Source: Propionibacterium ruminifibrarum (GTDB taxonomy: Bacteria > Actinomycetota > Actinomycetes > Propionibacteriales > Propionibacteriaceae). Taken from it: 32,000 nucleotides of DNA. The stretch lies in the NCBI RefSeq assembly GCF_900289195.1, contig NZ_OMOH01000002.1, positions 211,206 to 243,205 on the forward strand, read 5' to 3'. Shown in pieces: positions 2,239 through 27,567 of the stretch. The translations under genes were made by a program, and so were the position numbers. Numbering within the stretch: the first letter of the stretch is position 1; each line of letters starts with the position of its first letter. Under the pieces are notes generated by a model. It made no database searches, was not told the DNA's origin, and saw only the letters and a list, made by a program, of their open reading frames with translations.

Positions 2239-3527
2239 CCGGGGACGCTCCTCTCTGGTGTTCTGCAGCGTATCGGAGTTTCGGCGGCGGCGCCCTGGAA
2301 GAGCGGCGGCCCCGAGCCACCACCGGGGCGAGCAGGGCGGCGGGCCAGTCTCGCCTGCGCCGCGTCCACCCATGGCCGCGCGATGCGCTCGAGGACGGCC
2401 AGCGCCACCAGGAAGTCCTGGATGCGCATCGTCATGCGGGTGTTGTACTCGCAGAACTGCACTGCCGCGATGACGCCCAGGGCGATGCCGCCGGCGAGCG
2501 CCACCGGCATCGTGGCGTTCGTACTGCGTCCCAGCGAGAGCAGGCAGCACCTGGTGAGCAGGCCGAAGGCCACGACCGAGCCGACCACGCCGGCGACGCC
2601 CCACAGGGAGGCCCACTCGCCCACCGCGGAGAACGGGATGTAGGTGTGGACGCGCATCTGGTCGGCGATGTCCGGCCACCCCGCCAGGCCGGAGGGCAGC
2701 GGGTTCAGTTCGACGAGCAGGTGATCCAGGGTGATCCAGGGCACGCGCGAGCAGTAGATGAGCAGCGGGACGATGAAGGCGATGTTCTCGGCGAAGGTGC
2801 TCCCGGTCGAGGACAGATACCCCGGATCGGTCACGAGATCGGCAGTGGCATCCCAGTACGGGATGAGGCCGTGGGTCGCCTGGCCGCGGTTGTTGAGGGG
2901 GATGGGCAGGGTCAACAGGGCGAAGGCCAGGCCGCCCAGCCACGCCCACCACGCCACCCGCCGTCCCCCCATGACCCGCCCCAGCAGGTGGAGCACGACG
3001 ACGCCGCAGAGGACGCGCGTCGCCGAGCCGAACATGAACACGACCGAGACGGCGAGGAAGAGCGCACCGAGCACCGGGTGCCGCTGCCCGATCATGCCGG
3101 CCAGCATCGGCAGCAGCGGCAGGGCGGCGCCGGCGACCACGACCACCATGTGCGGCGCCGATGTCATGAGGTAGTCGGTGGCGAAGAAGAGGTACTGGCC
3201 CTTGGCCGCGGCATTCGTCACGATGACGACCAGCCCGAGCACGATCCACAGGGGCATGAGGACCGCGACGGGTTCACGGGTGCGCTCGGTGACCTCGGCC
3301 AGGGTCAGCCCCGGGCCCAGTGGCAGCGCGAGCGCGACGAGCGAGCCGACCACGATCGCGGCGACCAGACGCACGGCGGTGTCGTGGTCGTAGACCTGCC
3401 AGACGTTCACGAACGGGCCCCGCTCCCCGGGTGAGGGCCGGCGGACGGCCCACTCGGCCACCGGGAGGCAGACGAGGAAGAGGAGCCCGACGATGAGGAC
3501 CGGCAGACGGTCGATGGTCACCCTCAT
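2217..3527 (-). CDS. polytopic membrane protein, Wzy-like polysaccharide polymerase / O-antigen-ligase-like
   Basis: ORF 2217..3563. The preferred start is ATG 3527 (MRVTIDRLPVLIVG...), 4 nt after the upstream stop at 3532-3534. The protein is almost entirely hydrophobic helices with no soluble domain. It sits between the beta-helix protein and an acyltransferase in the EPS operon. The function is inferred from topology and context. Confidence 0.55.
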   Translation of the reverse strand: MRVTIDRLPVLIVGLLFLVCLPVAEWAVRRPSPGERGPFVNVWQVYDHDTAVRLVAAIVVGSLVALALPLGPGLTLAEVTERTREPVAVLMPLWIVLGLVVIVTNAAAKGQYLFFATDYLMTSAPHMVVVVAGAALPLLPMLAGMIGQRHPVLGALFLAVSVVFMFGSATRVLCGVVVLHLLGRVMGGRRVAWWAWLGGLAFALLTLPIPLNNRGQATHGLIPYWDATADLVTDPGYLSSTGSTFAENIAFIVPLLIYCSRVPWITLDHLLVELNPLPSGLAGWPDIADQMRVHTYIPFSAVGEWASLWGVAGVVGSVVAFGLLTRCCLLSLGRSTNATMPVALAGGIALGVIAAVQFCEYNTRMTMRIQDFLVALAVLERIARPWVDAAQARLARRPARPGGGSGPPLFQGAAAETPIRCRTPERSVPGCPLPAP

Positions 3528-3531
3528 GGGG

Positions 3532-4893
3532 TCAGCCGATCCGGGTGACGATGTCGCCGGCATTGCAGAAGACGATGTCCTCGACGCCCTGGACGGGCCC
3601 GATCTTCGTCCGGATGGTCTCGCTCGGGGACTGGCGGAAGGCCAGCACGCAGTCGGGCGAGCCGCCCGAGATGGTGATGGGCCCGATGTAGCAGTCCAGG
3701 ATGTTCGGGGTCGCGGACACGACGGCGCCCTCGTAGCCGCCGCTGTTCCCGGCGAAGTTGCACCCGGTGATGGTGTGTCCTGCGATGTACCCGCTCGAGA
3801 TGGCGTCGGAGGGCATCGCCCGGGCGAAGTCGTCGCCGTCCTGGTCCAGGTAGGCGATGCGCAGGTCGGAGCTGTCGGCGAACTCGTTGCCGAACTTGTT
3901 GGCGTCCACGAGCAGGCCCGAACCGGCGTTCACGGCCTTGTCGCCAGGCACGATCCACACCGCGACCCGGTTGGACCCCGAGCTGGTCTGGACGAAGTCG
4001 TTGTTCTGGATGTGCGCGTTGTTCCCGCCGCGACCCAGCTTGATGTGCACGCGGTTGTTGACGAAGGCGTTGTCCGAGATCGTCGTGCCGTCCGTCAGGC
4101 CCGGCAGGGCGACGGCGATCGAGTTCTCGGAGCCGGCCGCCGAGAAGTAGTTCTGGGTGATCTTCCAGTAGGGCATGTCCGAGGAGGCATGGCAGATCGC
4201 GTTCTCCTCGTAGCCGACGAAACGGCAGTTGCGCACGACGTGCATGGTCGTCACGTTCGCGCCCCGGTACCGGTTGCGGATGACGGCCCGCCCGCCGGTG
4301 AAGCTGATGCCCTCCACGAACAGCGAGCCCCACTGCTGGTCGGAGTCGATGAGGTAGTCCGCGTCGATGGTGATGAAGGTGCGGCCGGCGCCCAGGCCGC
4401 GCAGCACCGGCGACGACACGTCGATGCCGGAGCCCCGGTAGACGAAGGCGCCCTCGCCGAGGGTCAGTCCCTCGCGCACCGCACGCTCGATGGTCTCGGT
4501 GTCGTCGACGCCGGTGGCCGTCAGCCCCTCGCCGGTCACCGGGGCGTACTCGGGTTCGTCGGGCGCCCCCGGCGTCGTGGCCGGTTCCGACGACTCGGTG
4601 GCCTCGGCGCTCTGCTCGCCGTCGGGCCGGGCATCGGAGCCGCCCGGCTCGGGCGCATCCGTGCCCGTTGCGGGAGCCGACTGCTCGATGCCGGCCGACT
4701 CCTGGCCGGCGGGCGTCGTGGCGCCCGAGGCGGACAGCCCGGGCACGCCGCCGGGAGCGGACGATCCAGGCGGGGCGGTTCCTTCACCCGTGCCCGAACG
4801 GGCCGGCGAGTTCTGGGTGCCGCAGCCGGTCGTACCGAGAGCGACGGCACCGGCCGCCCCGGCTCCGAGGAAGAATCGTCGAGAAGTCTTCAT
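3532..4893 (-). CDS. secreted right-handed beta-helix (pectin-lyase-fold) protein with a Tat signal and lipobox-like Cys; WcaM-like architecture
   Basis: The N-terminus 'MKTSRRFFLGAGAAGAVALGTTGC' carries a twin-arginine motif, an h-region and a Cys. About 110 aa of Pro/Ser/Gly/Glu/Thr-rich linker follow. After that come repetitive N/G/V/I-rich coils ('VRNCRFVG', 'ISDNAFVNNRVHI', 'HIQNNDFV', 'ITGCNFAGN') typical of parallel beta-helix repeats. The start is ATGA-coupled to the upstream gene (4890-4893). Confidence 0.6.
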   Translation of the reverse strand: MKTSRRFFLGAGAAGAVALGTTGCGTQNSPARSGTGEGTAPPGSSAPGGVPGLSASGATTPAGQESAGIEQSAPATGTDAPEPGGSDARPDGEQSAEATESSEPATTPGAPDEPEYAPVTGEGLTATGVDDTETIERAVREGLTLGEGAFVYRGSGIDVSSPVLRGLGAGRTFITIDADYLIDSDQQWGSLFVEGISFTGGRAVIRNRYRGANVTTMHVVRNCRFVGYEENAICHASSDMPYWKITQNYFSAAGSENSIAVALPGLTDGTTISDNAFVNNRVHIKLGRGGNNAHIQNNDFVQTSSGSNRVAVWIVPGDKAVNAGSGLLVDANKFGNEFADSSDLRIAYLDQDGDDFARAMPSDAISSGYIAGHTITGCNFAGNSGGYEGAVVSATPNILDCYIGPITISGGSPDCVLAFRQSPSETIRTKIGPVQGVEDIVFCNAGDIVTRIG

Positions 4894-5582
4894 GAGAGTG
4901 TCACAACCTCCTGGTGGTCTGTCGGGTTGTCTGGGAGCGGGCCGCGGCGGGGCTGGGAGACGTCCGGCCCGCCGTGCCGGACGGATTCTGCGAGCGAGGC
5001 GATGACGGCGCCGAGGACGAGACCGGCGAGCAGACCGACGAGGCCATCGGTCACGGGATCGGCACTGGTCTCGGTGACCGCGTCTGCGCCGTCCTGGATG
5101 GTGACCGTCTTGAGCGCCGGGTCGCCCGAGCTCTGCTTCATGCCGGAGTCGATGATCTCCTCGCCGAGCACCTCGACGGTGGTGTTGGCCAGTTCAACGG
5201 CCCGGTCCGGGTCGTCGGCGGTGGCGGTGACCTCGACGATCGAGGTGTTCAGCGGGACGGTGGCGCTGAGCCGCCCGGCCAGGTCGGCGGCGGGCTGGTG
5301 CAGGCCGAGACGGTCGTTGACCTCGTTGAGGACGACCCCTGAGGTGGCCAGCGCCGAGTAGGTGCCCATCGAGTTGGAGATCATGGTGGGCACCGTGGAC
5401 TGGTAGGTCTGGTCTGCGCCCTCGGCCGGGTCGGCGGCACCGACCAGCACGGAGGCGGTCGAGGAGTAGCTGGGGGTGCTCAGTGCGGCCCGGCCGGCAC
5501 CGACGAGCGCCCCCAGGATCGCGATGACGAGGACGATCCACCAGTACACGCGCAGGGCGTGGAGGATTCGCGGGGTCTTCAC
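4890..5582 (-). CDS. Wzz/PCP-type polysaccharide co-polymerase (chain-length determinant) without a kinase domain
   Basis: GTG start at 5582 is preceded by AAGGAG. The topology is an N-terminal TM ('WWIVLVIAILGALVG'), an extracytoplasmic segment of roughly 130 aa and a C-terminal TM ('GLVGLLAGLVLGAVIA'). No Walker-type BY-kinase domain is present. Confidence 0.55.
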   Translation of the reverse strand: MKTPRILHALRVYWWIVLVIAILGALVGAGRAALSTPSYSSTASVLVGAADPAEGADQTYQSTVPTMISNSMGTYSALATSGVVLNEVNDRLGLHQPAADLAGRLSATVPLNTSIVEVTATADDPDRAVELANTTVEVLGEEIIDSGMKQSSGDPALKTVTIQDGADAVTETSADPVTDGLVGLLAGLVLGAVIASLAESVRHGGPDVSQPRRGPLPDNPTDHQEVVTLS

Positions 5583-5619: not shown

Positions 5620-6210
5620 TCACCGGCACTCCCCCATGGCGATGGCCTTGATGAAGGCGAGGCCCTGGTAGGCGAACTGGTAGGCCCAGCCCAGGGGCGT
5701 CATGGCCGCGTCGTAGGACCAGACGGTGACCGGTCCCCCCGCACACTGGCCCATGACGTAGCGGGTCCGGCTCACGTGGGGACGGGTCGTCAGCACGATG
5801 ACCCGGTCCCAGCCCCGCTCGCCGCGCCAGCGCGCCAGCTGTGCCGCCTCGCCCCTCGTCGTGGAGGGATCGGGCTCGAAGCAGGTCACCGGATAGGGGT
5901 GCTCCTCGGCGCAGAACGAGGTGCTCGGCTCGGGCCGGAACACCGAGCCGAGCACCGGGGTGGACACGACCAGCTCGTCGGCGACACCGTCGTTCATGAG
6001 CTGCAGGGCGTAGGCGACACGGCCGCTGTCGTGCGGGCCCAGGACGAACAGCACGTCCGCATGGCCGGGCGCCGTCTCATGGCGGGGGAAGGCGACGAGA
6101 CGGATGTCGAGAACGCCCAGGACGAGTACGAGGACGACGACCAGGAGCCACAGAACCCGGCCGAGGCGTCCCGGCCCCCGGCCTCCCGGCCTGCTGCGCT
6201 GTCCGCTCAT
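5620..6210 (-). CDS. DUF218 / YdcF-ElyC-like membrane-anchored protein
   Basis: An N-terminal TM ('VLWLLVVVLVLVLGVL') is followed by a small Rossmann-like domain ('ADVLFVLGPHD...DELVVS...RVIVLTTRPHVSRT'). The start ATG 6210 is ATGA-coupled to the flippase stop (6207-6210). Confidence 0.5.
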   Translation of the reverse strand: MSGQRSRPGGRGPGRLGRVLWLLVVVLVLVLGVLDIRLVAFPRHETAPGHADVLFVLGPHDSGRVAYALQLMNDGVADELVVSTPVLGSVFRPEPSTSFCAEEHPYPVTCFEPDPSTTRGEAAQLARWRGERGWDRVIVLTTRPHVSRTRYVMGQCAGGPVTVWSYDAAMTPLGWAYQFAYQGLAFIKAIAMGECR

Positions 6211-7445
6211 GATCGCGGCACCTCCGCGGCGGGTTCCTCGCCGGCTCCGGCGATGTCGGGACGCACGCCCACGTACTCGTCGAGGATGCGTACGAGCATC
6301 GAGACGACCACACCGATCAGGGCGCCCGCAGCGCCCCAGACATGGACGCCGGCCGCGACCATGGCGGTGGCCAGCAGGCCGCTGGCCACGTTGGCGCGGG
6401 TGATGCGGCGCAGCCGGCCGAAGGCGGTCAGGACGGCGCGGCTGAGGACCGTCTCGTAGGTGCCGAGTGCCACGAACAGGGCCATGAGCACGGTGATGAG
6501 GGCGTCCGGGCGGATCACCCCGTCACCGAGGTAGTCGGTGAGGAACGGCCCGAGAATGATGACGGCGACGAGGATGAGTGCGCCCATCGGGATCATGGCG
6601 AGCAGGGCCCGGCGTCCGCGACTGCGCCGGTCCCCGCGCGGCACCCAGCCCTGCATGACCGTGGACAGCGGGGTGAGGGCCACCGTGATCTGGCGCTGCA
6701 CCCTGTCGACGAAGGCGAACATCGGACGGGCCGCCGGGTTGACGAACGAGACGATCACCATCGGCAGCGACAGGACGACGGCGTTCGTGATCGACGCCGC
6801 CACACCGTCGAACTTCTCGCGCAGCACGACATGGACCGGGCGCACCGCACGCGCGACGGCGCCCTCACGGCGCAGCCTGGCCAGGATGTGGACGGTGCTG
6901 AACACGACGGCCGCGGCGATCCCCAGGCACTGGCAGCTCGTGCCGACGACGGCGCTGGCGCCGGAAGTGTTCATGACGAACCAGCCGGTCATCGTGCCGG
7001 CGACCCGCGGAAGGGTCTCGACCAGGAGGAACCAGTAGGGCGCCATGATGCCCACGAAGTACCACTGGCCGCTCATGCCGACGAGGGCCTGGGCGAGAGC
7101 GCCGATCGCGCCGAAGACGCGGAGTCCGGGACCGGCGACGACGGCGCCGATGAGGCAGCAGGCCAGGCAGACCGGCAGACACAGGAACAGGCGGGCACGC
7201 ATCGCCTCGACGTACTCGGCGCGGCGCCCGTCGGCATCGGCGCGGGCGATGATCGCCGGCCCGGCCATGCCCCAGCCGTAGCCGATGACGACGGCACCGA
7301 CCGCCCCGATGACCTGACCCGCGCTGAGGGCGCCGTAGGCCACGTCCCCAGAAGCCCGGATAAGAGCAGGGATGACCATGAGGGATGCCAGCGCCAACAG
7401 GATCATCGACAGCCCGTAGCCGATGGCCTTGGATGCACCTCGCAT
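6207..7445 (-). CDS. Wzx-like (MOP superfamily) polysaccharide flippase
   Basis: ATG at 7445 is preceded by GAGGAG. The 412-aa protein is made almost entirely of TM helices. Its N-terminus 'SKAIGYGLSMILLALASLMVIPALIRA' is typical of polysaccharide-biosynthesis/flippase proteins. It is the first gene of the leftward operon. Confidence 0.6.
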   Translation of the reverse strand: MRGASKAIGYGLSMILLALASLMVIPALIRASGDVAYGALSAGQVIGAVGAVVIGYGWGMAGPAIIARADADGRRAEYVEAMRARLFLCLPVCLACCLIGAVVAGPGLRVFGAIGALAQALVGMSGQWYFVGIMAPYWFLLVETLPRVAGTMTGWFVMNTSGASAVVGTSCQCLGIAAAVVFSTVHILARLRREGAVARAVRPVHVVLREKFDGVAASITNAVVLSLPMVIVSFVNPAARPMFAFVDRVQRQITVALTPLSTVMQGWVPRGDRRSRGRRALLAMIPMGALILVAVIILGPFLTDYLGDGVIRPDALITVLMALFVALGTYETVLSRAVLTAFGRLRRITRANVASGLLATAMVAAGVHVWGAAGALIGVVVSMLVRILDEYVGVRPDIAGAGEEPAAEVPRS

Positions 7446-7690: not shown

Positions 7691-8257
7691 ATGACCGACC
7701 ACACCGATCACGCCGTCGCGCCGCCCCGCCACAGACTCGCCGAGTTCACCGGGCGAGGTTACGACAAGGGACGCGGAAGGCTCGTGTGCGCCGCGTGGGT
7801 GCTTCTCGCCGAGCCCATCCAGCGATCGGTGCTCGTCCCTCCCCGGCTGCGCACGCGCCTGCTGCGCGCCTTCGGCGCGAGGATCGGACGCGGCACGCTG
7901 ATCCGGCACGGCGTCCGCATCCACTGGCCGTGGAAGCTCACCGTCGGGCGTGACTGCTGGATCGGTGTCGGCGCACAACTACTCGACCTGGACCGCATCG
8001 TCATCGGCGACGACGTGTGCATCAGCCAGCAGGCCATGCTGTGCACCGCCTCGCACGACGCCGACGATCCCCGCTTCGAGATCCAGCTGGGGCCCATCAC
8101 CGTGGGCTCGGGAAGCTGGATCGCCACCCGTGCCACCGTGCTGCGCGGGGTCACCGTCGGCGAGGATGTCGTGGTGGGTGCGACCGCCCTGGTGACCAGG
8201 GACGTCCCAGACCGCACGAGGGTCCTGCCCCCCAGGCCGGAGGAGAAACCCCGGTGA
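7691..8257 (+). CDS. WcaF-like hexapeptide-repeat acetyltransferase
   Basis: ORF 7652..8257 begins with TTG. The preferred start is ATG 7691 (MTDHTDH...), with GAGGAG at 7672-7677. 'FGARIGRGTLIRHGVRIHWPWKLTVGRDCWIGVGAQLLDLDRIVIGDDVCISQQAMLCTASHD...ITVGSGSWIATRATVLRGVTVGEDVVVGATALVTRDVP' matches the WcaF-type colanic acid acetyltransferase layout. Confidence 0.7.
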   Translation: MTDHTDHAVAPPRHRLAEFTGRGYDKGRGRLVCAAWVLLAEPIQRSVLVPPRLRTRLLRAFGARIGRGTLIRHGVRIHWPWKLTVGRDCWIGVGAQLLDLDRIVIGDDVCISQQAMLCTASHDADDPRFEIQLGPITVGSGSWIATRATVLRGVTVGEDVVVGATALVTRDVPDRTRVLPPRPEEKPR

Positions 8258-10644: not shown

Positions 10645-10646
10645 CC

Positions 10647-10678
10647 CCGGGCCCCGCTCGGCCCCGTGCGGGGCCCGG
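10647..10678 (+). terminator. GC hairpin (10-bp perfect stem, 12-nt loop) just after the GT stop; possible attenuator or partial terminator ahead of gmd
   Basis: CCGGGCCCCG (10647-10656) pairs with CGGGGCCCGG (10669-10678). The hairpin starts 3 nt after the stop at 10642-10644. No U-tract follows (the next bases are tgaaacaaaccc). Confidence 0.35.
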
Positions 10679-10715
10679 TGAAACAAACCCATATCCCCTA
10701 CCGAAAGTCACCCCC

Positions 10716-11789
10716 ATGGCACACCGCGCATTCATCACCGGTATCACCGGCCAGGACGGCTCCTATCTCGCCGAGTTCCTGCTCTCGAAGGGATACGAGG
10801 TGCACGGGCTCATCCGCCGGTCGTCGAGCTTCAACACGCACCGCATCGACCACCTGTACCGCGACCCGCACGACGAGTCGGCACGTCTGTTCCTGCACTA
10901 CGGGGACCTGTCGGACGGGGCGCGCCTGGTGACCCTGCTGCACGACATCAATCCCGACGAGGTCTACAACCTCGCCGCCCAGTCGCACGTCCGCGTCTCC
11001 TTCGACGAACCCGAGCACACCGCCGACACCACCGGCGTCGGCACGGTCCGCCTGCTCGAGGCAGTGCGCCAGTCGGGCATCGGGGCCCGGTTCTACCAGG
11101 CCTCCACCTCTGAACTGTTCGGTGCGACGCCCCCGCCGCAGAACGAGACCACCCCGATGTACCCGCGTTCGCCCTACGGCGCCGCGAAGATGTACAGCTA
11201 CTGGGTCACCAAGAACTACCGCGAGGCGTACGGCATGTTCGCGGTCAACGGCATCCTGTTCAACCACGAGTCCCCGCGCCGCGGCGGCACCTTCGTGACC
11301 CGCAAGATCACCCGGGCCGCGGCCGCCATCAAGGCCGGCCAGCAGGACGTGCTCTACATGGGCAACATCGACTCGATCCGGGACTGGGGCTACGCCGCCG
11401 AGTACGTCGAGGGCATGTGGCGCATGATGCAGGCCGACGAGCCCGAGGACTTCTGCCTGGCGACCGGCCGGGGCACGACGGTCCGCGAGTTCCTCGACTA
11501 CTCCTTCGGCCACCTCGACCTGGACTGGCGTGACCACGTGCGCTTCGACGAGCGCTATCTGCGCCCCACCGAGGTCGACGCCCTCATCGGCGACCCGACG
11601 AAGGCCCACGACAAACTCGGCTGGCACGCGCAGGTCGACGCCAGGGGTCTGGCCGAGATCATGGTTGACGCGGACGTCCAGATCCTCACCCACCACACCG
11701 ATCCGTGGATCGACGTCCCCCGGACGTCCTGGGCCGACCGGATTCCCCGGGTCGAGGCGACCTCCGAGACGGCGGGGGTGCGGGCATGA
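10716..11789 (+). CDS. gmd: GDP-mannose 4,6-dehydratase
   Basis: ATG 10716 lies inside ORF 9567..11789. '[27 protein letters not shown]...YGDLSD...[10 protein letters not shown]...[11 protein letters not shown]...[11 protein letters not shown]...[22 protein letters not shown]' is near-collinear with E. coli Gmd. Confidence 0.95.
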
Positions 11790-12796
11790 CCGGCGTGGAC
11801 TACACCCCGGCACCGATCGACCGGGACGCGGTCACCTACGTCGCCGGGCACCGGGGCCTGGTCGGCTCGGCGATCTGGCGCCGTCTTGAGCAGGAGGGCT
11901 TCAGCCGCCTGGCCGGCTCGAGCCATGCCGAACTGGACCTGACCGACCGGGACGCGGTCTTCGCCCACTTCGAGGCCGTCGGCCCCCGGTACGTCATCCT
12001 GGCCGCGGCCAAGGTCGGCGGCATCCTGGCCAACGACACCTACCCGGCCGATTTCTGGTCGGTGAACCTGCGCATCCAGACCAACGTCATGGACGCCGCG
12101 CTGGCCTGCGGCACCGAACGCCTGCTGTTCCTCGGCTCCTCGTGCATCTACCCGAAGCTGGCCCCCCAGCCGATCACCGAGGACCGCCTGCTCACCGGTC
12201 ACCTCGAGCCCACCAATGACGCCTACGCGATCGCCAAGATCGCCGGCATCATCGGCGTCCAGGCCGTTCGTCGCCAGTACGGTCTGCCGTGGATCTCGGC
12301 CATGCCGACGAACCTGTACGGTCCCGGGGACAACTTCGCCCTCGTCGGCTCGCACGTGCTGCCCGCGATGATCCGCCGGTACGACGCGGCGGTCGCCGAA
12401 GGGGCCACGCGCATCACGAACTGGGGCACCGGCAGGCCGCGCCGCGAGTTCCTGCACGTGGACGACATGGCCGACGCCTGCCTGTTCCTCCTGGACAACT
12501 ATGACGGCCCGACCCAGGTCAATGTGGGGACCGGCAAGGACTGCACCATCGCTGAACTGGCCGGCCTCGTGGCCGAGGCCACCGGCTACACCGGAGAGGT
12601 CGTCTGGGACACCACCAAGCCCGACGGCACCCCGCAGAAACTGCTCGACGTGAGCCTGCTGACCGGTATGGGCTGGCGGCCCCGCCACGGCCTGCGCGAG
12701 GGCATCGCCGACACGCTCGCCTGGTACCGGGAGCACCGGCAGAGCTTCCGCGACAGCGACACGGAGCAGCCGCGCAGCGGCGAGGGGCACGCGTGA
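11786..12796 (+). CDS. fcl: GDP-L-fucose synthase (GDP-4-keto-6-deoxymannose 3,5-epimerase/4-reductase)
   Basis: ATG 11786 is ATGA-coupled to the gmd stop. '[18 protein letters not shown]...[18 protein letters not shown]...[17 protein letters not shown]...[14 protein letters not shown]...[12 protein letters not shown]...[10 protein letters not shown]...[13 protein letters not shown]' is collinear with E. coli Fcl/WcaG. Confidence 0.93.
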
Positions 12797-14403
12797 TCGG
12801 CGGCCCGTGGGTCGACCAGTACCCGCCGGCGACCGAGACGGTCCTGCCACCGGTCACCGACGACATCGTGAGTCATCTCGGTCTGGAGACGGTCGACCCC
12901 GACCGGATCGCGATGCGCTGCCACGGGCGCACCCTCACCTACGGACGGCTCATCGAGGCTCACCGGCGCGTCGCCGCCGGCCTGGCCGGCGCCGGCCTCG
13001 GGCCCGGGGATCGGGTCGCCGTCATCGCCGGCACCGGGCCCGAGCATCTCATCGCGCTGCTGGCCGCCCTGCGCCTCGGCGCCATCGTCGTCGAGCACGA
13101 CACCGCGGCGACCTCCCACGAGCTGGCCGGCCTGTTCGCCGACCACGGTGCGCGCCTGGCATTCACCGACCCCGAGGTGGCCCCCCGGGTGCCCGGTGAC
13201 GTGCGGACCGTCGTCCTCACCGGGGAGCACCGGGCCGCGCCGGCCCACCCCCCGGGCTCTCCGGTCTGGGCAGATCTGAGCGGGCACGCGCCGCTCGGTG
13301 ACGAGGCACCGCGGCCCGCGCCGCAGGACACCGCGCTGCTGCTGTACACCTCGGGGTCCACCGGCCGGCCCAAGGGGGTGCCGTTCACCCACGCCATGAT
13401 CGGCCATGCGATCGACCAGAACCTCAACTTCTTCCGCATGCAGGGCCGTGGGGACGGCCGTCACTACCTGACGCTGCCGCTCAACCACGTCTTCGCGCTC
13501 GTGGATCAGCTGTTCAGCGCGCTGGCGCGCGCCGTCGAGCTCATCGCCTTCCGCCGGGGCGACATCGACGCCGTCGTGGCGGCCGCTGCGACCCGGCCGC
13601 CACGCAAGCTGGGCACCGTCCCGCCCGTCCTGGACGCCATCGCGGCCGGCGCGGCCAGGGCGGGCGTGCGCTTCGACGACCTCTACGTCGCCACCGGCGG
13701 GCTGCCCCTGACCCGGCGCACCGTCGACGCGTGGCTGCGGATCAGCGACAGCCCGCCCGTCAACGGCTGGGGCATGACCGAGTCCTGCGGCTACGGGCTC
13801 ATGCCCCTGCCCGACCCCGCCCGGGTGCCGGCCGGCAGCTGCGGGGTGCCACTGCCGGACCTCGACGTGCGGGTCTGCGACCCGGCCGATCCCACTCGCG
13901 AACTCGGCGTCGGCGAGACGGGTGAGCTCCAGCTGCGGGGACGCCTGGTCTTCGGCGGCTACTGGAACGACCCGCGGGCCACGGCCGAGGCCTTCACCCG
14001 CGACGGCTTCCTGCGCACGGGTGATCTGGTGAGCATGGACGGGCAGGGATTCTTCTTCTTCCACGGACGCCTCAAGGAGATCATCTCGGTCCAGGGCGAG
14101 AACGTCTCGCCGGTGGAGGTCGAACGAGTGCTCGAGGCCGCGCCGGGCATCGCACGCGCCTTCGTCTACCCCCGCGAGACGACGCCGGGGGTGAACATCC
14201 TCCTGGCCGCCTTCACCGCCGCCCCGGGAACCGCCGCCGACCCGGATGCCGCGCTCGCCCTGTGCGCCGAGCGGCTCGCCCCGTACAAGGTACCCATGCG
14301 CCTGACCCGGGTCGATACGCTGCCGCTGTCCGCCGCCGGAAAGCTGCGGCGCGACGTCGACGGACAGGCCTGGACGCGCGCGCATCGGGTGAGGGGGCAC
14401 TGA
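12793..14403 (+). CDS. adenylate-forming (ANL) enzyme, FadD-like acyl-CoA/acyl-carrier-protein ligase
   Basis: GTG 12793 is GTGA-coupled to the fcl stop. The N-terminus has a FadD-like 'WVDQYPP'. Core motifs are 'LLLYTSGSTGRPKGV', 'GWGMTES', 'GELQLRG', 'FLRTGDL', 'HGRLKEIISVQGENVSPVEVE' and the C-terminal 'AAGKLRR'. Confidence 0.85.
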   Translation: MIGGPWVDQYPPATETVLPPVTDDIVSHLGLETVDPDRIAMRCHGRTLTYGRLIEAHRRVAAGLAGAGLGPGDRVAVIAGTGPEHLIALLAALRLGAIVVEHDTAATSHELAGLFADHGARLAFTDPEVAPRVPGDVRTVVLTGEHRAAPAHPPGSPVWADLSGHAPLGDEAPRPAPQDTALLLYTSGSTGRPKGVPFTHAMIGHAIDQNLNFFRMQGRGDGRHYLTLPLNHVFALVDQLFSALARAVELIAFRRGDIDAVVAAAATRPPRKLGTVPPVLDAIAAGAARAGVRFDDLYVATGGLPLTRRTVDAWLRISDSPPVNGWGMTESCGYGLMPLPDPARVPAGSCGVPLPDLDVRVCDPADPTRELGVGETGELQLRGRLVFGGYWNDPRATAEAFTRDGFLRTGDLVSMDGQGFFFFHGRLKEIISVQGENVSPVEVERVLEAAPGIARAFVYPRETTPGVNILLAAFTAAPGTAADPDAALALCAERLAPYKVPMRLTRVDTLPLSAAGKLRRDVDGQAWTRAHRVRGH

Positions 14404-14404
14404 G

Positions 14405-14839
14405 ATGGGCGTCGGGATCGACATGGTCGACGTCGCCGAGGTGACGAGCGCCCTCGAACGCCACGGCAGGCACTACCTCGACCGGGTCTACGCACCGGCT
14501 GAGCAGGCCGAGACGGCCTCGATGAGTCCGCGCCGGATGCGCGAGTACCTGGCCGGGCGGTTCGCCGCGAAGGAGGCCGTGCTCAAGGCGCTGCGGCCGC
14601 CGCCCTGTGCGGCGGCCGCGCTGACGCAGATCGTGGTGACCGGGGCCGGGGGTGCTCCCCGCGTCGAGCTCGCCGGGAACCTGCTCGCGTGGTGGCGCTC
14701 GTCGGGGCACGGACCGGTGGACGTGTCCATCAGCCACACCAGGGTCATGGCGGTGGCCGTGGCCCGGACGGATCAGGGCCCGGGGCCCGGCACACAGGAA
14801 GGGGACGATGATGAGCAGGACGGAGCAGACGGTGCGTGA
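14405..14839 (+). CDS. acpS: holo-[acyl-carrier-protein] synthase (AcpS-type 4'-phosphopantetheinyl transferase)
   Basis: The ATG lies 1 nt after the ANL stop. 'GVGIDMVDVAEV...', 'LAGRFAAKEAVLKAL' and 'VSISHT' are the classic AcpS motifs. The acidic/Gly tail overlaps the next gene by 32 nt. Confidence 0.85.
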   Translation: MGVGIDMVDVAEVTSALERHGRHYLDRVYAPAEQAETASMSPRRMREYLAGRFAAKEAVLKALRPPPCAAAALTQIVVTGAGGAPRVELAGNLLAWWRSSGHGPVDVSISHTRVMAVAVARTDQGPGPGTQEGDDDEQDGADGA

Positions 14840-15053
14840 GGCGCTCGCCGAGGTGGGCAACCTGGACGAGGACGCGATGAGCCTCGCCGCGGACGCCTCG
14901 CTGGCCGACGCGGGACTGACCTCGCATGCGGCGGTCAGCCTGCTGCTCGAGATCGAGGACCGGCTCGGCATCGAGTTCCCACCCGAGCAGATGACGCCGG
15001 AGACCATGGCCTCGATCCGTGCGATCGAGGCGGGGATCGAGGCGCTGTCATGA
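14808..15053 (+). CDS. small stand-alone carrier protein (ACP/PCP-like, 81 aa)
   Basis: ATG 14808 lies inside ORF 14652..15053 and is preceded by AGGAAGGGGA. The four-helix-bundle-like sequence has its candidate phosphopantetheine site at 'ADAGLTSHAAVSLLLEIEDRLGIEF' (Ser codon 14922..14924). It sits between a PPTase and a carrier-protein ligase. Confidence 0.75.
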   Translation: MMSRTEQTVREALAEVGNLDEDAMSLAADASLADAGLTSHAAVSLLLEIEDRLGIEFPPEQMTPETMASIRAIEAGIEALS

Positions 15054-15955
15054 GCCTGGCCGCCAGTGAGACCACGCTGCGTGACGCGCTGCGCGACGCA
15101 GGGCACCTGCTTCCCGGCCCCCGCCCAGGGATCGACGGGCACGGCCCGGAGTTCGAGGCCGTCGTCGACGGGATCTGGCGGGCCTACTTCGACAGGGCGC
15201 CCGCCGGGACCCCGGTCATGGCCTTCGGCCCGCTCATCGACGCGGCCCAGTTCACCGCCACGGACTACCCCCGTTCTTTCCCGCACCTGGTCGGTGAGGT
15301 CGAGGTCTTCGACGGCGGTGACGCCGAGCACGGCGCCCTCATCCGGGACATCGATGCCGGGGCCGACTGGACGACGCACTTCGTCCCCAGTGGCATGACG
15401 TTCGTCCCGGCCACCTGCGAGAACGTCTACCCGCGCTACGCCGGCACGCTTGAGGGGCCGACGATCGTCGCCTGCCGCAGCTGGTGCTTCCGCCACGAGC
15501 CCAGCGACGACCCGATGCGCATGGTGAGTTTCCGCATCTGCGAGTACGTCTACCTGGGCTCTGCCGATGGCGCCGAGTCGTTCCGCACCGACTGGCTGGG
15601 GCTGCTCCTGGAGTTCTTCACCGATCTCGGCCTGGAGGTCGCCAGCGACCGCGCGAACGACCCCTTCTTCGGCCGGATCGGCGCGATGCTGGCGGCCAAC
15701 CAACGTCGGTCGGGCATGAAGAACGAGATCAGCATCGCCCTCTACCCGGACCGCCGTACCGCTATCTCGAGCGTGAACACGCACCGCACGCACTTCGCCG
15801 ACAGCTTCGGCATCCGGCAGGCCGGCGGTGAACCCGCCCACACCGCCTGCGCCGGCTTCGGCATCGAACGGGTCGCCATCGCCCTGTTCGCCGCCCACGG
15901 CATGACCACCGCCGACTGGCCGGAGCCGGTGCGTGCGGTCCTGCGGCTGCCCTGA
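15050..15955 (+). CDS. amino acid:[carrier protein] ligase, a truncated class II aminoacyl-tRNA synthetase (atypical SerRS-like catalytic core) homologue
   Basis: The start is ATGA-coupled to the carrier protein gene. The protein is 301 aa with no tRNA-binding domain. It has a motif 2-like 'CFRHEPS' and a motif 3-like 'CAGFGIERVAIALF'. A Cys123/Glu165/Cys267 trio sits in 'PATCEN', 'ICEYV' and 'TACAGFG', consistent with the Cys-Glu-Cys zinc site of this family. Assignment is by motif and context only. Confidence 0.7.
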   Translation: MSLAASETTLRDALRDAGHLLPGPRPGIDGHGPEFEAVVDGIWRAYFDRAPAGTPVMAFGPLIDAAQFTATDYPRSFPHLVGEVEVFDGGDAEHGALIRDIDAGADWTTHFVPSGMTFVPATCENVYPRYAGTLEGPTIVACRSWCFRHEPSDDPMRMVSFRICEYVYLGSADGAESFRTDWLGLLLEFFTDLGLEVASDRANDPFFGRIGAMLAANQRRSGMKNEISIALYPDRRTAISSVNTHRTHFADSFGIRQAGGEPAHTACAGFGIERVAIALFAAHGMTTADWPEPVRAVLRLP

Positions 15956-15982
15956 GAGCCCGGCCGGCCTCGTCGGGCTCTC
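15954..15982. terminator. bidirectional hairpin between the convergent EPS operon and hrpA
   Basis: GAGAGCCCG (15954-15962) pairs with CGGGCTCTC (15974-15982) across an 11-nt GC-rich loop. The stem overlaps both stop codons (TGA 15953-15955 on +, TGA 15983-15981 on -). Confidence 0.5.
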
Positions 15983-18900
15983 ATCCGGCGGCCCGGGCGA
16001 TGGCCCGGCGGATGCGTTTGGGTGAGACCGTCTGGCTGGTGCCCAGGCGCTGGGCGAACAGCTGCACGCGGTACTCCTCGAGCAGGAAACCGATGTCGTC
16101 GACCTGCCGGCTCAGCGGGCCGGGCGGCTGGGCATCGCACAGCTCGTCGTACTCCGCGGCGAGTTCGTCGAACCCGCCCATCAGCTCCTCGTCGCGGGCC
16201 GGATCGGACCGTGCCGCGTCAAGGCGCATCGAGGCGGCCTGCAGGTAGCGCGGCAGGTGCTGGTACCAGGGGTCGGCGGTGAACGAGATGAAGCCGGGGA
16301 ACACCAGGTTCTCCAGCTGGGCCGTCACGTCCTCGGCGGTGGCGGCCGACACGCCGGGCGCATCGGCGCGGATCTGCCGGGCCCAGCCGAGCGCCGCGGA
16401 GGCCGTGGCGACGACGTCGCGCATGACGTCAGCCTGCTCGGCGCGCACCTGGGTCGCCAGCGCGGCGAACCGCTCCTCGTCACGCACCTGGGCCGGGTCG
16501 GCGTGCGCCCGGGCGGCCCGGTCGACGGCCTTGAGCCGGGCATCGGCGAGCAGCTCGGGCACGCTCTCGTAGGGATTGTCGCCGAGCCAGAGCCGCTCCT
16601 GCCGACCGAGATGGGAGACCACCCAGCGCGTCGGGTCGGGGTTGACCAGGACGAGAAGCCGCCTGATCCCGCGCGCGTGCGAGTCCGCGGCGGCCTGCGG
16701 CGTGTCGGCCAGGAAGAGGGCGACGCTGTCGCCGTCATCGCGCAGGGCCGGGTACCCGACGGCCTGCAGGCCGCCGCGGCGGATCGTCCTGGTCGGCTCG
16801 ATCGTCCCGAACACCCAGCTCGTGGCGCCGGTCCTGGCGGTGTCGCGCGAGGCCCTGGTGAGCGTGCTGGAGACGCGCTCGGCCAACTGCCGCTGCAGCT
16901 CGGCGAGGTCCTTGCCCTGCCCGGTGACCCGGTCCTTCTCGACGACCTCGAAGCGCACCCGCAGGTGGTGTGGGACGGCGTCGGGGCGCCACTGGTCGGG
17001 TTCGACCACGATGCCGGTCAGGGCGCGCAGGGCCCGGCCGAGTTCATCGTGGAGGAAGCGCGAGTGGTCGGCCCCATTGGCCTTGAGCCAGCGCAGCGCG
17101 GCGCGGGCGTGGTCGGGGGCCGGGACGAAACCGGTGCGCACCGCCTTGGGCAGCGCGCGGATCAGCTCGGTGGCGAGTTCGGTGCGCAGGCCCGGCACCT
17201 GCCAGCTGAAGGGTTCGGGGCGCAGCTGGTTGAGTTCGGCGAGCCTCACCCGGACCGTCACGCCGTCGGCGCCCGATCCGGGGTCGAAGACATAGCCGAC
17301 GGGCAGGCGCAGCTCGCCGACCCGCCAGCTGTCCGGGAAGGCGCTGGTGTCGACGTCGTCCGCGTCCTCGCGCACCAGGTCGTCCATCGACAGGTCGAGC
17401 AGGTGCTGGTCCGGTTCGCGTGACCACCAGCTGTCGAAGGTGGCGCCCGAGTGGACGGTGGCCGGGATGCGGGCGTCGTAGAACTCGAAGATCGTCTGGT
17501 CGTCGACGAGCAGGTCGCGGCGCCTGGTGCGCTCCTCGAGATCGGCGACCTCGTCCCGCATCCGCTGGTTGTGCTCGATGAAGTCGTGCCGGACCCGGCC
17601 GCCGGTGGGCTGCCAGCCGTTCTCGACGAGCCCGGTGCGGATGAAGATCTCGCGGGCCTCGGCTGGGTTGACGCGCCCGTAGTCGACGAGGCGATCGGCG
17701 ACGAGCGGTACACCGTACAGGGTGGCGCGCTGGCTTGCGAGGACGCCTGCCGAACTGCTCGACCAGTGCGGCTCGGCGTAGCCGTACTTGACGAGCGGGC
17801 CGGCGACCGACTCGACCCATTCGGGTTCGATCGCGGCGCAGGTGTGCGCCCACAGGCGGGTCGTCTCGACGAGTTCGACGGCCATGACCAGCGGCGGGTT
17901 CTGCTTGGCCAGCGCCGAGGCGGGGCTGATGGCGAATCGGGTGCCGCGCGCCCCGAGGTACTCGCGGGGGCCGCGGGGTTTGCGTCGGCCTCGGTGCCGG
18001 GCTCCCCTGGTGGTGTTCTCGGCCTCGAGGAGGCCGATGTGCGAGAGCAGGCCCGACAGGACGGATTGCAGGATGGCCTCGGTGCTCCCGGGGCGGTCAT
18101 TGCGCTTCAGGTGCAGGTCGGCGCCGACTCCTGACAGCTGGCTGCGCAGGTCCTGCCATTCGCGGACGCGCAGGTAGTTGATGAACTCGGCGCGGCACAG
18201 GCGGCGGAACTGGTTTCCCGACAGGCGCCTGCGCTGGGCCATCAGATAGCTCCACAGGCGCCAGATGGCCATGACGTCACCGCCCGGGCCGACCGTGACC
18301 GGCTCGTCGAACTCGCCCTCGCGGCCGGTCTGCGGGGTGTAGCGGGCCGGCCGGCCCGGCCCAGGGGCGGGTTCGCCGGTGGGGCCGGTCAGGATGTCGT
18401 CGGTGAGGAAGCGGCGGTGCAGCTGGTCGGCCTGCTGGCGTTTCTCGGCGGGGCGTTCGCGCACGTCCTGGATGGCCAGGGCGGCGGCGATCACCTCGAC
18501 CTCGCGCAGGCAGCCACGGCGGGAGGCCTCGATGAGCATGCGCCCCAGGCGCGGGTCGATGGGCATCTCGGCGAGCCGGTGACCGGTCCTGGTCAGGCGC
18601 GGTGTGCGCCGGTCCGGCCCCTTGAGGGCGCCGAGTTCGCCGAGCAGGCGCAGGCCGTCGGTGACCTGGGCCCGATCGGGGGCCTCGACGAACGGGAAGT
18701 CGTTGATGTCGCCCAGTTCGGCACTGGCCATCTTGAGGATGACCGAGGCCAGGTTGGTGCGCAGGATCTCCGGTTCGGTGAACTCGGGGCGGGTCAGGTA
18801 GTCCTCCTCGGCGTAGAGGCGGACGCAGATGCCGGGCCCGAGCCGCCCGCACCGTCCGGCCCGCTGGTCGGCGCTGGCCCGGCTGACGGGTTCGACGGGC

Positions 18901-19877
18901 AGGCGCTGCACCTTGGTGCGGGTCGAGTACCGGGAGATGCGGGCCAGGCCGGTGTCGATGACGTAGCGGATACCGGGCACGGTCAGCGAGGTCTCGGCGA
19001 CGTTGGTGGCCAGGACGATGCGCCGGGTGCGGTGCGGGGCGAAGATGCGACGCTGCTCGGCGGCCGGCAGACGCGAGAACAACGGCAGCACCTCGGTGCC
19101 GTCCCCCAGATCGGCGCCGTCGAGGGCCGCGGCGGCCTCGCCGATCTCGCGTTCGCCGGAGAGGAAGACGAGGACGTCACCGCTCGGCCCGAGCTCGCGG
19201 ACGGCCGACACGATGGCGGCGGGCATGTCCGGGTCGTCGTCGTCCACGGCCGGGGGCCGGTAGCGGATCTCGACCGGCCAGGTGCGCCCGGAGACCTCGA
19301 CGATCGGCGCCGGCGTGCCGTCGGGGGCGGCGAAGTGCTCGGCGAAGCGGACGGTGTCGATCGTCGCGGAGGTGATGATGACCTTCAGGTCGGGTCTGGC
19401 GGGCAGCAGCTGTTTGAGGTAGCCGAGCAGGAAATCGATGTTGAGGCTGCGCTCGTGGGCCTCGTCGATGATGATCGTGTCGTAGCGCCGCAGCTGCCGG
19501 TCGTGGTTGATCTCGGCGAGCAGGACGCCGTCCGTCATGACCTTGACACGGGTCTGTTTCGTCGTCGCCCTGGTGAAACGCACCTGGTAGCCGACGACGT
19601 CCCCGAGCCTCACGCCCATCTCGTCGGCCATGCGTTCGGCGAGGGTGCGGGCCGCGATGCGCCGCGGCTGGGTGTGGCCGATGCGTCGGCGGCCCACCGC
19701 CAGGGCGATCTTGGGCAGCTGGGTGGTCTTTCCCGAACCGGTCTCACCGGCCACGACGACGACCTGGTTGTCCCGGATGAGCTCGGCGATCTCGTCGGTG
19801 TGGGCGCTGATCGGCAGGCCGGGATCGACCTCGATGTGCGGTTCACCGGAGGCCGGGGTCTCGTTCACGTCAGGCAT
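15981..19877 (-). CDS. hrpA: ATP-dependent RNA helicase HrpA (DEAH-box)
   Basis: 1298 aa. Contains 'AGETGSGKTTQLPK', 'IIIDEAHERS', 'ITSATID', 'LATNVAETSLTVPG' and 'QRAGRCGR', plus the long HrpA-specific C-terminal region. Confidence 0.93.
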   Translation of the reverse strand: MPDVNETPASGEPHIEVDPGLPISAHTDEIAELIRDNQVVVVAGETGSGKTTQLPKIALAVGRRRIGHTQPRRIAARTLAERMADEMGVRLGDVVGYQVRFTRATTKQTRVKVMTDGVLLAEINHDRQLRRYDTIIIDEAHERSLNIDFLLGYLKQLLPARPDLKVIITSATIDTVRFAEHFAAPDGTPAPIVEVSGRTWPVEIRYRPPAVDDDDPDMPAAIVSAVRELGPSGDVLVFLSGEREIGEAAAALDGADLGDGTEVLPLFSRLPAAEQRRIFAPHRTRRIVLATNVAETSLTVPGIRYVIDTGLARISRYSTRTKVQRLPVEPVSRASADQRAGRCGRLGPGICVRLYAEEDYLTRPEFTEPEILRTNLASVILKMASAELGDINDFPFVEAPDRAQVTDGLRLLGELGALKGPDRRTPRLTRTGHRLAEMPIDPRLGRMLIEASRRGCLREVEVIAAALAIQDVRERPAEKRQQADQLHRRFLTDDILTGPTGEPAPGPGRPARYTPQTGREGEFDEPVTVGPGGDVMAIWRLWSYLMAQRRRLSGNQFRRLCRAEFINYLRVREWQDLRSQLSGVGADLHLKRNDRPGSTEAILQSVLSGLLSHIGLLEAENTTRGARHRGRRKPRGPREYLGARGTRFAISPASALAKQNPPLVMAVELVETTRLWAHTCAAIEPEWVESVAGPLVKYGYAEPHWSSSSAGVLASQRATLYGVPLVADRLVDYGRVNPAEAREIFIRTGLVENGWQPTGGRVRHDFIEHNQRMRDEVADLEERTRRRDLLVDDQTIFEFYDARIPATVHSGATFDSWWSREPDQHLLDLSMDDLVREDADDVDTSAFPDSWRVGELRLPVGYVFDPGSGADGVTVRVRLAELNQLRPEPFSWQVPGLRTELATELIRALPKAVRTGFVPAPDHARAALRWLKANGADHSRFLHDELGRALRALTGIVVEPDQWRPDAVPHHLRVRFEVVEKDRVTGQGKDLAELQRQLAERVSSTLTRASRDTARTGATSWVFGTIEPTRTIRRGGLQAVGYPALRDDGDSVALFLADTPQAAADSHARGIRRLLVLVNPDPTRWVVSHLGRQERLWLGDNPYESVPELLADARLKAVDRAARAHADPAQVRDEERFAALATQVRAEQADVMRDVVATASAALGWARQIRADAPGVSAATAEDVTAQLENLVFPGFISFTADPWYQHLPRYLQAASMRLDAARSDPARDEELMGGFDELAAEYDELCDAQPPGPLSRQVDDIGFLLEEYRVQLFAQRLGTSQTVSPKRIRRAIARAAG

Positions 19878-20879: not shown

Positions 20880-20995
20880 GGGCCGAGCCTACGCCGCGGG
20901 GAACCCGCGGTCACGCCCGCACGAACCGGGTGACGGCACGGCGGAATGACCCGGTCGCCGGCGGAACGTAGAATCCAGCTGGGAGCTGGCGCCGG

Positions 20996-21964: not shown

Positions 21965-21985
21965 GGAGGGCCGAGCCCGCCGGCC

Positions 21986-27430: not shown

Positions 27431-27508
27431 GCCGCACCCCGGCGCCCGGGCGACGACACAGAAGGGCCGGCGCCGCCATGGCGCGTGGGTGGTGCCCCTG
27501 AGACGGCC

Positions 27509-27541: not shown

Positions 27542-27567
27542 CGCGATGCCTCTCCCCCGGGTCGGCG

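Follow-up and report, generated by a model that had tools for sequence, protein, structure and literature searches.

A predicted amino acid:[carrier protein] ligase cassette joined to GDP-fucose genes in Propionibacterium ruminifibrarum and its possible role in surface-polysaccharide tailoring

Ligases of the amino acid:[carrier protein] type (aa:CP ligases), which derive from aminoacyl-tRNA synthetases (aaRS), are reportedly known best from Bll0957 and Bll6282 of Bradyrhizobium and Atu2573 of Agrobacterium, whose biochemistry and structures Mocibob and colleagues are said to have described in 2010 and 2013; the ligase and carrier structures used for reference here are 3MEY, 4H2S-4H2Y and 2JQ4. 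Several other described systems rely on dedicated carriers. The Dlt proteins (DltA-DltC-DltB-DltD) D-alanylate teichoic acids and the AlmEFG proteins add glycine to lipid A in Vibrio cholerae, and by analogy both appear to share with the system considered here the logic of an ATP-dependent loader that places a small amino acid on a dedicated carrier for delivery to an envelope glycopolymer or glycolipid. In butirosin biosynthesis (BtrI, BtrJ and BtrH) and in V. cholerae O1, where RfbK-O place tetronate on perosamine, an acyl or aminoacyl group is built on a stand-alone carrier and then passed to a sugar, and the O1 locus, which starts from a Gmd-derived GDP-sugar, also contains carrier and ANL-like genes. 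The exosortase-A (PEP-CTERM/EpsH type 1) cassette TIGR03098-03101, described by annotation only, combines an ANL enzyme (TIGR03098), a carrier, a pyridoxal phosphate (PLP) decarboxylase (TIGR03099) and two hydrolases, hydrolase 1 (TIGR03100) and hydrolase 2 (TIGR03101). The biological role of the aa:CP ligase family is given as unknown in PMC9437257, in agreement with an earlier note on the DNA treated here, which had stated that the pathway consuming the aminoacyl-carrier product was not established, and a search of the literature in full text found no paper on a pathway downstream of these ligases. We analyzed a 32,000-nt stretch of Propionibacterium ruminifibrarum DNA (contig NZ_OMOH01000002.1, positions 211,206 to 243,205, forward strand; hereafter the window), in which the genes for GDP-L-fucose synthesis, gmd and fcl, are joined to an aa:CP ligase cassette at the 3' edge of a surface-polysaccharide (exopolysaccharide, EPS) locus. 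The reading we prefer, to which we give an even chance, is that GDP-L-fucose synthesis by Gmd and Fcl is coupled to a carrier-protein tailoring module, which would attach aminoacyl or N-acyl-aminoacyl groups to a fucose-containing polysaccharide.

The cassette belongs to a block of six genes (Table 1), in which all open reading frames (ORFs) proved to be in frame at the positions given in the earlier note, with the same junctions and with families assigned by profile search. An ATGA overlap (11786-11789) joins gmd to fcl and a GTGA overlap (12793-12796) joins fcl to the ANL gene, while one base separates the stop codon of the latter from the start of the AcpS gene (TGAgATG, 14401-14407). The AcpS and carrier genes overlap by 32 nt, or by 29 nt with the second ATG as start, and the carrier and ligase genes again share an ATGA (15050-15053). 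Purine-rich, Shine-Dalgarno-like stretches lie 6-12 nt 5' of every internal start in the block. From the overlaps we infer an operon-like unit that is co-transcribed and co-translated.

Residues 29-300 of the ligase align with Bll0957 (3MEY/4H2W) at E values of 6e-57 to about 1e-57, and the alignment with methanogen-type (type-2) seryl-tRNA synthetase (SerRS) is confined to the catalytic core. The protein, which has a weak PF00587 match, is a stand-alone SerRS-derived class II core that has no tRNA-binding domain. The model NF005479, "amino acid--[acyl-carrier-protein] ligase", covers 295 of its 301 residues and scores 295.6 bits vs. an equivalog cut-off of 357, which is the curated threshold of one equivalog model and does not define the wider family. 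Every invariant column in an alignment of 90 homologues is satisfied by the window ligase: C123, R148, E150, E165, C267 and R274 stand in invariant or near-invariant columns, and those of C123, E165, C267, R148 and R274 are conserved in 85-90 of the 90 sequences and align with Bll0957. R148 and R274 are the arginines of class II motifs 2 and 3, and C123, E165 and C267 are presumably the zinc ligands. At G269, which is glycine in 86 of the 90 family members, Bll0957 has A281; Marsavelski and colleagues reportedly found in 2014 that A281G extends the Gly specificity of Bll0957 to Ala and Ser. Two residues, each beside a zinc ligand, set the five window-clade ligases apart, E124 (Tyr or His in others) and C164 (Arg or His in others), and the amino-acid specificity of these five may therefore differ from that of the characterized Gly/Ala enzymes. 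Outside the clade, the nearest homologues share 40-52% identity with the window ligase.

The top PDB matches of the carrier are the aminoacyl carrier proteins Atu2571 (2JQ4) and 4H2W chain C, at E 1e-10; there is a further match to the aminoacyl carrier protein of Bradyrhizobium. Its phosphopantetheine serine lies in a GLTS motif that aligns with the GLSS and GLTS motifs of solved aminoacyl carriers, while similarity to DltC (E 1e-6) and to the D-alanyl carrier protein 7R49 (E 5.5e-4) is weak. The presence of a ligase, a cognate-type carrier and a dedicated 4'-phosphopantetheinyl transferase (PPTase) bears out the earlier note's recognition of a genuine aa:CP ligase system, as far as sequence comparison can tell. 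AcpS would convert the small carrier to its holo form, and for the ligase we infer the ATP-dependent reaction shown for its homologues, in which a small amino acid is adenylated and then thioesterified to the thiol of the phosphopantetheine arm. With the Bll0957 and Atu2573 systems the window appears to share the truncated methanogen-type SerRS core, the zinc ligands, the motif 2/3 arginines, a cognate-type small carrier adjoining the ligase and a dedicated AcpS-type PPTase; unlike theirs, the window genes are joined to gmd-fcl and an ANL gene and are without the family-typical neighbors, an acyl-CoA dehydrogenase (ACAD)-like protein and DUF1839.

These neighbors became evident from a wider survey. 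When one genome for each GTDB species was scanned by pattern, at least 598 loci proved to encode a relative of the ligase, and 80 of them were kept with 10-kb flanks; their ORFs, together with those of the window and of the sister locus L001, were clustered and recurrent clusters annotated, and the counts that follow refer to these 82 loci. An exhaustive HMMER search of 1.84 billion cluster representatives returned 137 clusters at E values up to 1e-30, the window-clade ligases forming a 50%-identity cluster of their own. The family occurs in at least about 600 species-representative genomes from Actinomycetota, Pseudomonadota, Gemmatimonadota, Planctomycetota and others. Its canonical cassette is AcpS-acyl carrier protein (ACP)-ACAD-ligase-DUF1839-didomain hydrolase-GH2-like: the ligase is present in all 82 loci, the carrier in 69, an ACAD-like gene between carrier and ligase in 70, the papain-like DUF1839 in 57, the didomain alpha/beta-hydrolase in 49, the GH2-like gene in 47, and AcpS, upstream of the carrier as in the window, in 31. 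The ACAD-like protein weakly resembles prolyl-carrier-protein dehydrogenases and ACAD-fold oxygenases. Among the scanned window ORFs there is no ACAD, DUF1839 or GH2-like gene, and the carrier directly abuts the ligase; the canonical-cassette hydrolase is kept, displaced to the opposite edge of the EPS locus. By its gene content the window system is best described as a reduced, ANL-supplemented derivative of a larger, widespread cassette, of which the earlier note makes no mention. In a rough neighbor-joining tree the window clade falls together with further actinobacterial "short" cassettes from which ACAD and DUF1839 have been lost, and by this tree such losses happened several times. In Arsenicicoccus dermatophilus (L086, 1-1336 and 8517-14376) two ligase cassettes stand 8 kb apart, one a canonical ACP-ACAD-ligase-DUF1839-GH2 set and the other a short AcpS-ACP-ligase set beside UDP-glucose dehydrogenase.

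The displaced hydrolase bounds the EPS locus at the end opposite to the block, about 13 kb from the cassette and beyond the coordinates covered by the earlier note. The full-length protein has 587 residues; its start lies 222 nt left of the window, and the gene is complete in the identical-sequence contig L092. Homology extends at E 5e-48 to the hydrolase of Kocuria and at about 1e-15 to many other canonical-cassette hydrolases, and in some 45 of the 80 genome loci a homologous hydrolase stands after the ligase or DUF1839. The nucleophile elbow of the C-domain, G-x-C-x-G (GACIG in the window), has its cysteine in 55 of 55 homologues, which come from about 53 loci and across which an Asp-His pair (D545-H546) is also conserved. 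The elbow cysteine is Cys390 in the full-length protein and residue 315 in the window fragment. In the N-domain the elbow reads G-x-R-x-G where G-x-S-x-G would be usual, with arginine at the nucleophile position in 47 of the 55 members; that domain probably has no catalytic role, or else binds an anionic group. An AlphaFold2 model of the hydrolase has a mean pLDDT of 62 and was built on 7 sequences only, all that a word-indexed homologue search returned and too few for a deep alignment; Foldseek comparison of the model with the PDB found generic esterases, lipases and dienelactone hydrolases, and the fold as modeled is a generic alpha/beta-hydrolase and nothing more specific. A cysteine nucleophile in the elbow would suit thioester-to-thioester transfer from the phosphopantetheine arm. 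Precedents exist in CmaE and SyrC, alpha/beta-hydrolases with a cysteine nucleophile that shuttle aminoacyl groups off carriers, and likewise in polyhydroxyalkanoate synthase. The hydrolase is a likely candidate for the off-loading or transfer enzyme: it might take the group off the carrier as a thioester, and either it or one of the two hexapeptide acyltransferases of the locus might deliver the group to the fucose repeat unit or to a nucleotide- or lipid-linked precursor.

The two halves of the hydrolase weakly match exosortase-A hydrolases, the N-half TIGR03101 and the C-half TIGR03100, and an ANL enzyme, a carrier and two alpha/beta-hydrolase modules inside an EPS locus are features that the window appears to share with the exosortase-A cassette. 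The scores are low (TIGR03098 174 vs. 592, TIGR03100 37.5 vs. 168 and TIGR03101 27 vs. 203 bits), the window hydrolases are fused, the host is Gram-positive, and no PLP decarboxylase, exosortase or PEP-CTERM protein accompanies the window genes, whereas the exosortase-A cassette for its part has no aaRS-like ligase. Judged from these comparisons, the resemblance is architectural and any homology distant only.

The ANL enzyme, which has AMP-binding and AMP-binding_C domains, is best matched by FadD-type ligases among NCBIfam models and by FadD13 among PDB entries (E 7e-50). It scores 183 bits against the amino-acid adenylation model TIGR01733, whose cut-off is 317, and on these family scores we reject the reading of it as a DltA-like amino-acid loader. 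A protein 100% identical to the ANL enzyme is recorded from a Propionibacteriaceae metagenome-assembled genome. ANL genes lie within 10 kb of the ligase in 5 of the 80 other loci, and adjacent to it in two or three, among them an Acidimicrobiales locus with the same ANL-AcpS-carrier order as the window; the ANL enzyme is not a conserved partner of the ligase. VinM-type ANL enzymes of macrolactam pathways acylate the amine of aminoacyl-S-ACP. The window enzyme might conceivably activate a non-amino carboxylic acid and either N-acylate the carrier-bound amino acid or load a second acyl group.

Such chemistry would also serve a different product. The cassette could make a free or membrane-bound N-acyl amino acid (a lipoamino acid, surfactant-like), with the ligase supplying aminoacyl-S-carrier, a fatty acyl group from the ANL enzyme N-acylating it and the Cys-His hydrolase releasing the product, in which case its siting in an EPS locus would reflect co-regulated matrix components. 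The closeness of the ANL enzyme to fatty-acyl-CoA ligases is consistent with this, as is the esterase-, lipase- or thioesterase-like fold of the hydrolase, to the extent that its poor model indicates one. Left of the hydrolase are a 145-aa ORF, a TesB-type acyl-CoA thioesterase two genes away, and housekeeping sigma factors; the thioesterase would fit an N-acyl amino acid pathway, but it may belong to the neighboring housekeeping region. Synthases for N-acyl amino acids are reported to be associated with exosortase EPS systems (Craig et al. 2011 J Bacteriol 193:5707, cited in PMC11631085), and the distant relationship of the hydrolase domains to exosortase-A hydrolases 1 and 2 points the same way. 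However, the ANL gene is absent from 75 of the 80 ligase loci, so that N-acylation cannot be the general function of the family, the translationally coupled partners of the cassette are gmd and fcl, and GH2-like, glycosyltransferase (GT), Wzx/Wzy/Wzc and LCP neighbors recur in independent lineages. We consider an N-acyl amino acid product unlikely.

The place of the ACAD-like gene between carrier and ligase in most canonical loci raises a further alternative, namely that the carrier-bound amino acid is an intermediate, converted on the carrier to a building block, non-amino-acid or non-proteinogenic, that ends up as a sugar substituent or within an unusual monosaccharide, by ACAD-like oxidation in canonical loci and by other enzymes in the window. 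The residues E124 and C164, by which the window clade differs from all other ligases, are consistent with this, and so are genes added in sister lineages. In L001 (11544-15091) and L090 (14049-17615) the ligase is directly followed by a GHMP kinase, an EamA transporter of the amino-acid/carboxylate type, an SbnA/CysK-type PLP beta-replacement enzyme (TIGR03945, 134 bits, below cut-off) and an AlaXM-like tRNA-editing protein (E 6e-32), which suggest that an unusual amino acid, a beta-substituted alanine, has a dedicated supply and is perhaps proofread while on the carrier. In the window locus, by contrast, there is no ACAD, PLP enzyme or kinase, and on-carrier modification is thus unsupported here unless the ANL enzyme performs it; we regard this alternative as similarly unlikely. 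ATP-grasp genes of the L-amino-acid-ligase type occur near the ligase in several loci without DUF1839 (L006, 13952-15223; L067, 13867-15141; L095, 4399-5655), and their recurrence suggests an alternative downstream step of peptide or amide formation. DUF1839 and BtrH both belong to the papain-like superfamily (PMC10318531). Unlike the window system, those for butirosin and O1 tetronate have other loaders, such as the ATP-grasp enzyme BtrJ, no aaRS-like enzyme and amino sugars as acceptors, and the window shows neither an aminotransferase nor a DUF1839/BtrH-like gene.

Comparison with relatives bears on whether the cassette and the fucose genes belong together at all. In the complete genome of Propionibacterium australiense (LR134442, at about 1.861-1.867 Mb) all six genes stand in the same order with overlapping junctions, including the four-base fcl/ANL and carrier/ligase overlaps, and this species shares the upstream genes, WcaF-like and GT4-GT4, that lead up to gmd. 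In two uncultured Propionibacterium lineages AcpS is missing from the block, and a fourth lineage (L084) has the carrier, the ligase, an AlaXM-like gene and then hrpA. The exact composition of the block is conserved at genus level only, with variation at the 3' edge of the locus. The earlier note had proposed a test across Actinobacteria for the set of ANL, AcpS, carrier and ligase genes next to gmd-fcl or other glycan genes: the set as such is confined to one genus-level clade, but glycan genes do stand beside the ligase in independent actinobacterial lineages. In Kocuria marina and K. varians a canonical cassette stands beside a WcaI-like GT (42% identity to that of the window), gmd (80%), fcl (69%) and the hydrolase, the closest homologue of the window protein, in an arrangement different from that of the window. 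The nearest outgroup ligases, 47-52% identical, are all within polysaccharide loci: L094 has two GT2 genes, a rhamnosyltransferase, Wzy_C, the hydrolase, AcpS, carrier and ligase; L095 has a Wzc-type kinase, an LCP ligase, the aa:CP ligase, Wzb, the ATP-grasp gene, several GTs and Wzx; and Nigerium massiliense has Wzy_C, a rhamnosyltransferase, a GT2, a PEP-utilising enzyme and the ligase. Short cassettes in Humibacter and in an Acidimicrobiaceae metagenome-assembled genome are flanked by a priming sugar transferase or a Wzx-type flippase (L006 has the former and L014 the latter). By these gene neighborhoods, the glycan link appears independent of Propionibacterium. A glycan-processing role for DUF1839 has been guessed, independently, from genomic context (PMC10318531).

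These observations also bear on the possibility that the adjacency is incidental, the ANL-AcpS-carrier-ligase genes being an independent module (for a secondary metabolite or for cell-wall or protein modification) that was inserted between fcl and hrpA and merely uses the gmd-fcl promoter. The Bradyrhizobium and Agrobacterium homologues were reportedly described by Mocibob and colleagues in 2010 with no link to glycans, which would be in keeping with such a module. The cassette sits at the very end of the EPS locus beside an unrelated helicase gene, and the content 3' of fcl varies among close relatives, AcpS being present or absent and extra genes intervening before hrpA, which points to a recombination-prone edge. 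Yet the hydrolase, a signature of ligase loci, marks the other boundary of this EPS locus, and Kocuria has independently brought the cassette together with a WcaI-like GT, gmd, fcl and the hydrolase. The siting of the nearest outgroup ligases in polysaccharide loci and the retention of the four-base overlaps in P. australiense likewise speak against chance adjacency, to which we assign a small probability, the smallest of the alternatives considered.

Several points weigh against polysaccharide tailoring as we propose it. Fucose has no amine, and only an ester link to fucose itself would be possible. The function of the window system may differ from that of the canonical cassette, given that ACAD and DUF1839 are missing. 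The ANL gene is a lineage-specific addition: only the Propionibacterium clade has orthologues that reach 65% identity or more, and the next hits, at 38%, are FadD-type housekeeping proteins. No priming glycosyltransferase was seen in the window, and in the source strain a strong hairpin (10647-10678) splits the block from the upstream GT genes. Seed-based phmmer searches place GH2-like genes in 50 of the 80 loci, glycan-assembly genes in 26 and either in 57, which favors a glycan link, but with the enrichment judged and not measured against a background rate. Finally, Pfam and NCBIfam models gave no match to MBOAT (DltB), DltD, AlmG-like or Acyl_transf_3 proteins among the scanned window ORFs, and the analogy with Dlt drawn in the earlier note accordingly extends to a loader plus carrier but not to the transferase. 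The window system would also differ from Dlt and AlmEFG in having an aaRS-derived loader in place of the ANL enzymes DltA and AlmE, its own ANL enzyme looking acyl-activating; in having a cytoplasmic Cys-His alpha/beta-hydrolase as candidate transferase; and in acting on a Wzx/Wzy-type polysaccharide, not on teichoic acid or lipid A.

Extended to the family, tailoring would mean that aaRS-derived ligases load a widespread, tRNA-independent carrier pathway attaching small amino acids or their derivatives to surface glycans, of which the Propionibacterium operon would be a minimal, genetically tractable version with a fucose polysaccharide as target and the Cys-His hydrolase as transferase. We hold this broader proposal tentatively, at somewhat less than an even chance. 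If true, it would be a third solution to envelope aminoacylation beside Dlt and AlmEFG, an aaRS-derived branch, and would assign functions to DUF1839 and to a hitherto unannotated hydrolase family. The locus and its relatives thereby offer a testable answer, surface-glycan tailoring, for the role of the ligase family, and their main value lies in these implications for the whole family and in the candidate transferase, less in the six-gene block itself. P. australiense, which is cultivable, carries the stripped-down version coupled to GDP-fucose synthesis.

Table 1. Features of the EPS locus and six-gene block, in window coordinates
Feature	Coordinates	Strand	Basis or remark
Didomain alpha/beta-hydrolase, C-terminal 512 residues	1..1541	+	homology to canonical-cassette hydrolase
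Left-handed beta-helix (hexapeptide) acyltransferase, 260 aa	1456..2238	-	weak NeuD/WcaF-type match, Hexapep_2; exact-sequence call in L092, L093
Polytopic membrane protein, about 9 transmembrane segments, candidate polymerase	2217..3527	-	hydropathy; no family match
Secreted or lipoprotein-like beta-helix protein	3532..4893	-	weak NosD/beta-helix match
Wzz-type chain-length determinant	4890..5582	-	PF02706 E 1.3e-8
DUF218 protein	5620..6210	-	PF02698 28.3 bits; also called in L088, L090, L092
Polytopic membrane protein, about 8 transmembrane segments, candidate flippase	6207..7445	-	hydropathy; no family match
WcaF-family polysaccharide O-acetyltransferase	7691..8257	+	NF007797 E 1e-48
Fused GT4-GT4 glycosyltransferase, 796 aa	8254..10644	+	two Pfam GT4 sets; C-half WcaI NF007640 E 1.4e-59
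GC-rich hairpin, gap between GT gene and gmd	10647..10678	+	-30.8 kcal/mol, z -3.0; no T tail
gmd (Gmd, GDP-mannose 4,6-dehydratase)	10716..11789	+	TIGR01472 514 bits, cut-off 415
fcl (Fcl, GDP-L-fucose synthase)	11786..12796	+	NF047922 E 3e-129; 431 bits vs. cut-off 500
FadD-like ANL acyl-adenylating enzyme	12793..14403	+	PF00501 and PF13193
AcpS-type 4'-phosphopantetheinyl transferase	14405..14839	+	PF01648; TIGR00556 67.6 bits vs. cut-off 45
Aminoacyl carrier protein, 81 aa	14808..15053	+	PF00550; NF005480 E 4e-18
Amino acid:[carrier protein] ligase, 301 aa	15050..15955	+	NF005479 E 3.6e-88
Hairpin between convergent ligase and hrpA genes	15953..15983	.	+ strand -37.3 kcal/mol, z -4.6; - strand -30.6 kcal/mol
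hrpA, convergent with block	15981..19877	-	unrelated helicase gene, 25 nt after ligase

The earlier note had described the neighbors of the block as Wzx/Wzy/GT genes. Profile matches support Wzz, WcaF-like and GT4-GT4 proteins, but the two polytopic proteins, of 8-9 transmembrane segments, matched no Pfam (E up to 1) or NCBIfam model. In L032, a ligase locus, the gene immediately following the hydrolase encodes a homologue of the polytopic protein at 6207-7445. The GT4-GT4 fusion is kept, at 795-807 aa, in all four related lineages, and its WcaI-like half is a separate gene in Kocuria. At the left edge of the locus, the convergent genes for the hydrolase (+) and the hexapeptide acyltransferase (-) share 86 nt at their 3' ends (1456-1541).

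Both hairpins that the earlier note placed at the ends of the block do fold strongly, but the one on the gmd side is not conserved in the relatives L088, L001 and L090, so that bracketing by hairpins is a feature of the source strain only. A scan for consensus terminators called neither hairpin, and T tails are absent from both. A promoter and terminator scan of 7400-16200 found no promoter-like site, a result that is uninformative on transcription units in a high-GC actinobacterium, and one weak terminator-like site in gmd, on the opposite strand, which is within chance expectation. Rfam at gathering thresholds gave no match in the entire window, and thus no known riboswitch or leader 5' of gmd. 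Recent horizontal acquisition of the block was considered and rejected; the GC content of 0.70-0.75 over 10-16 kb equals that of the rest of the window and gives no compositional signal.

A motif, AGTCACCCC, lies 5-9 nt 5' of the gmd and WcaF-like starts (window 10697-10715 and 7671-7690), and CGAAAGTCAC is kept 5' of gmd in two relatives (L001, 5955-5975; L090, 7555-7572). It differs from the canonical Shine-Dalgarno sequence and might be a common element for regulation or translation initiation. Unrelated housekeeping DNA makes up the right half of the window (19926-31498). It encodes an auxin-efflux-type transporter, a SorC-type sugar-binding regulator, a three-gene FAD/Fe-S oxidoreductase set resembling anaerobic glycerol-3-phosphate dehydrogenase, a patatin-like phospholipase, a class II ribonucleotide reductase, and an NrdR-domain ORF that has a long N-terminal extension as called.

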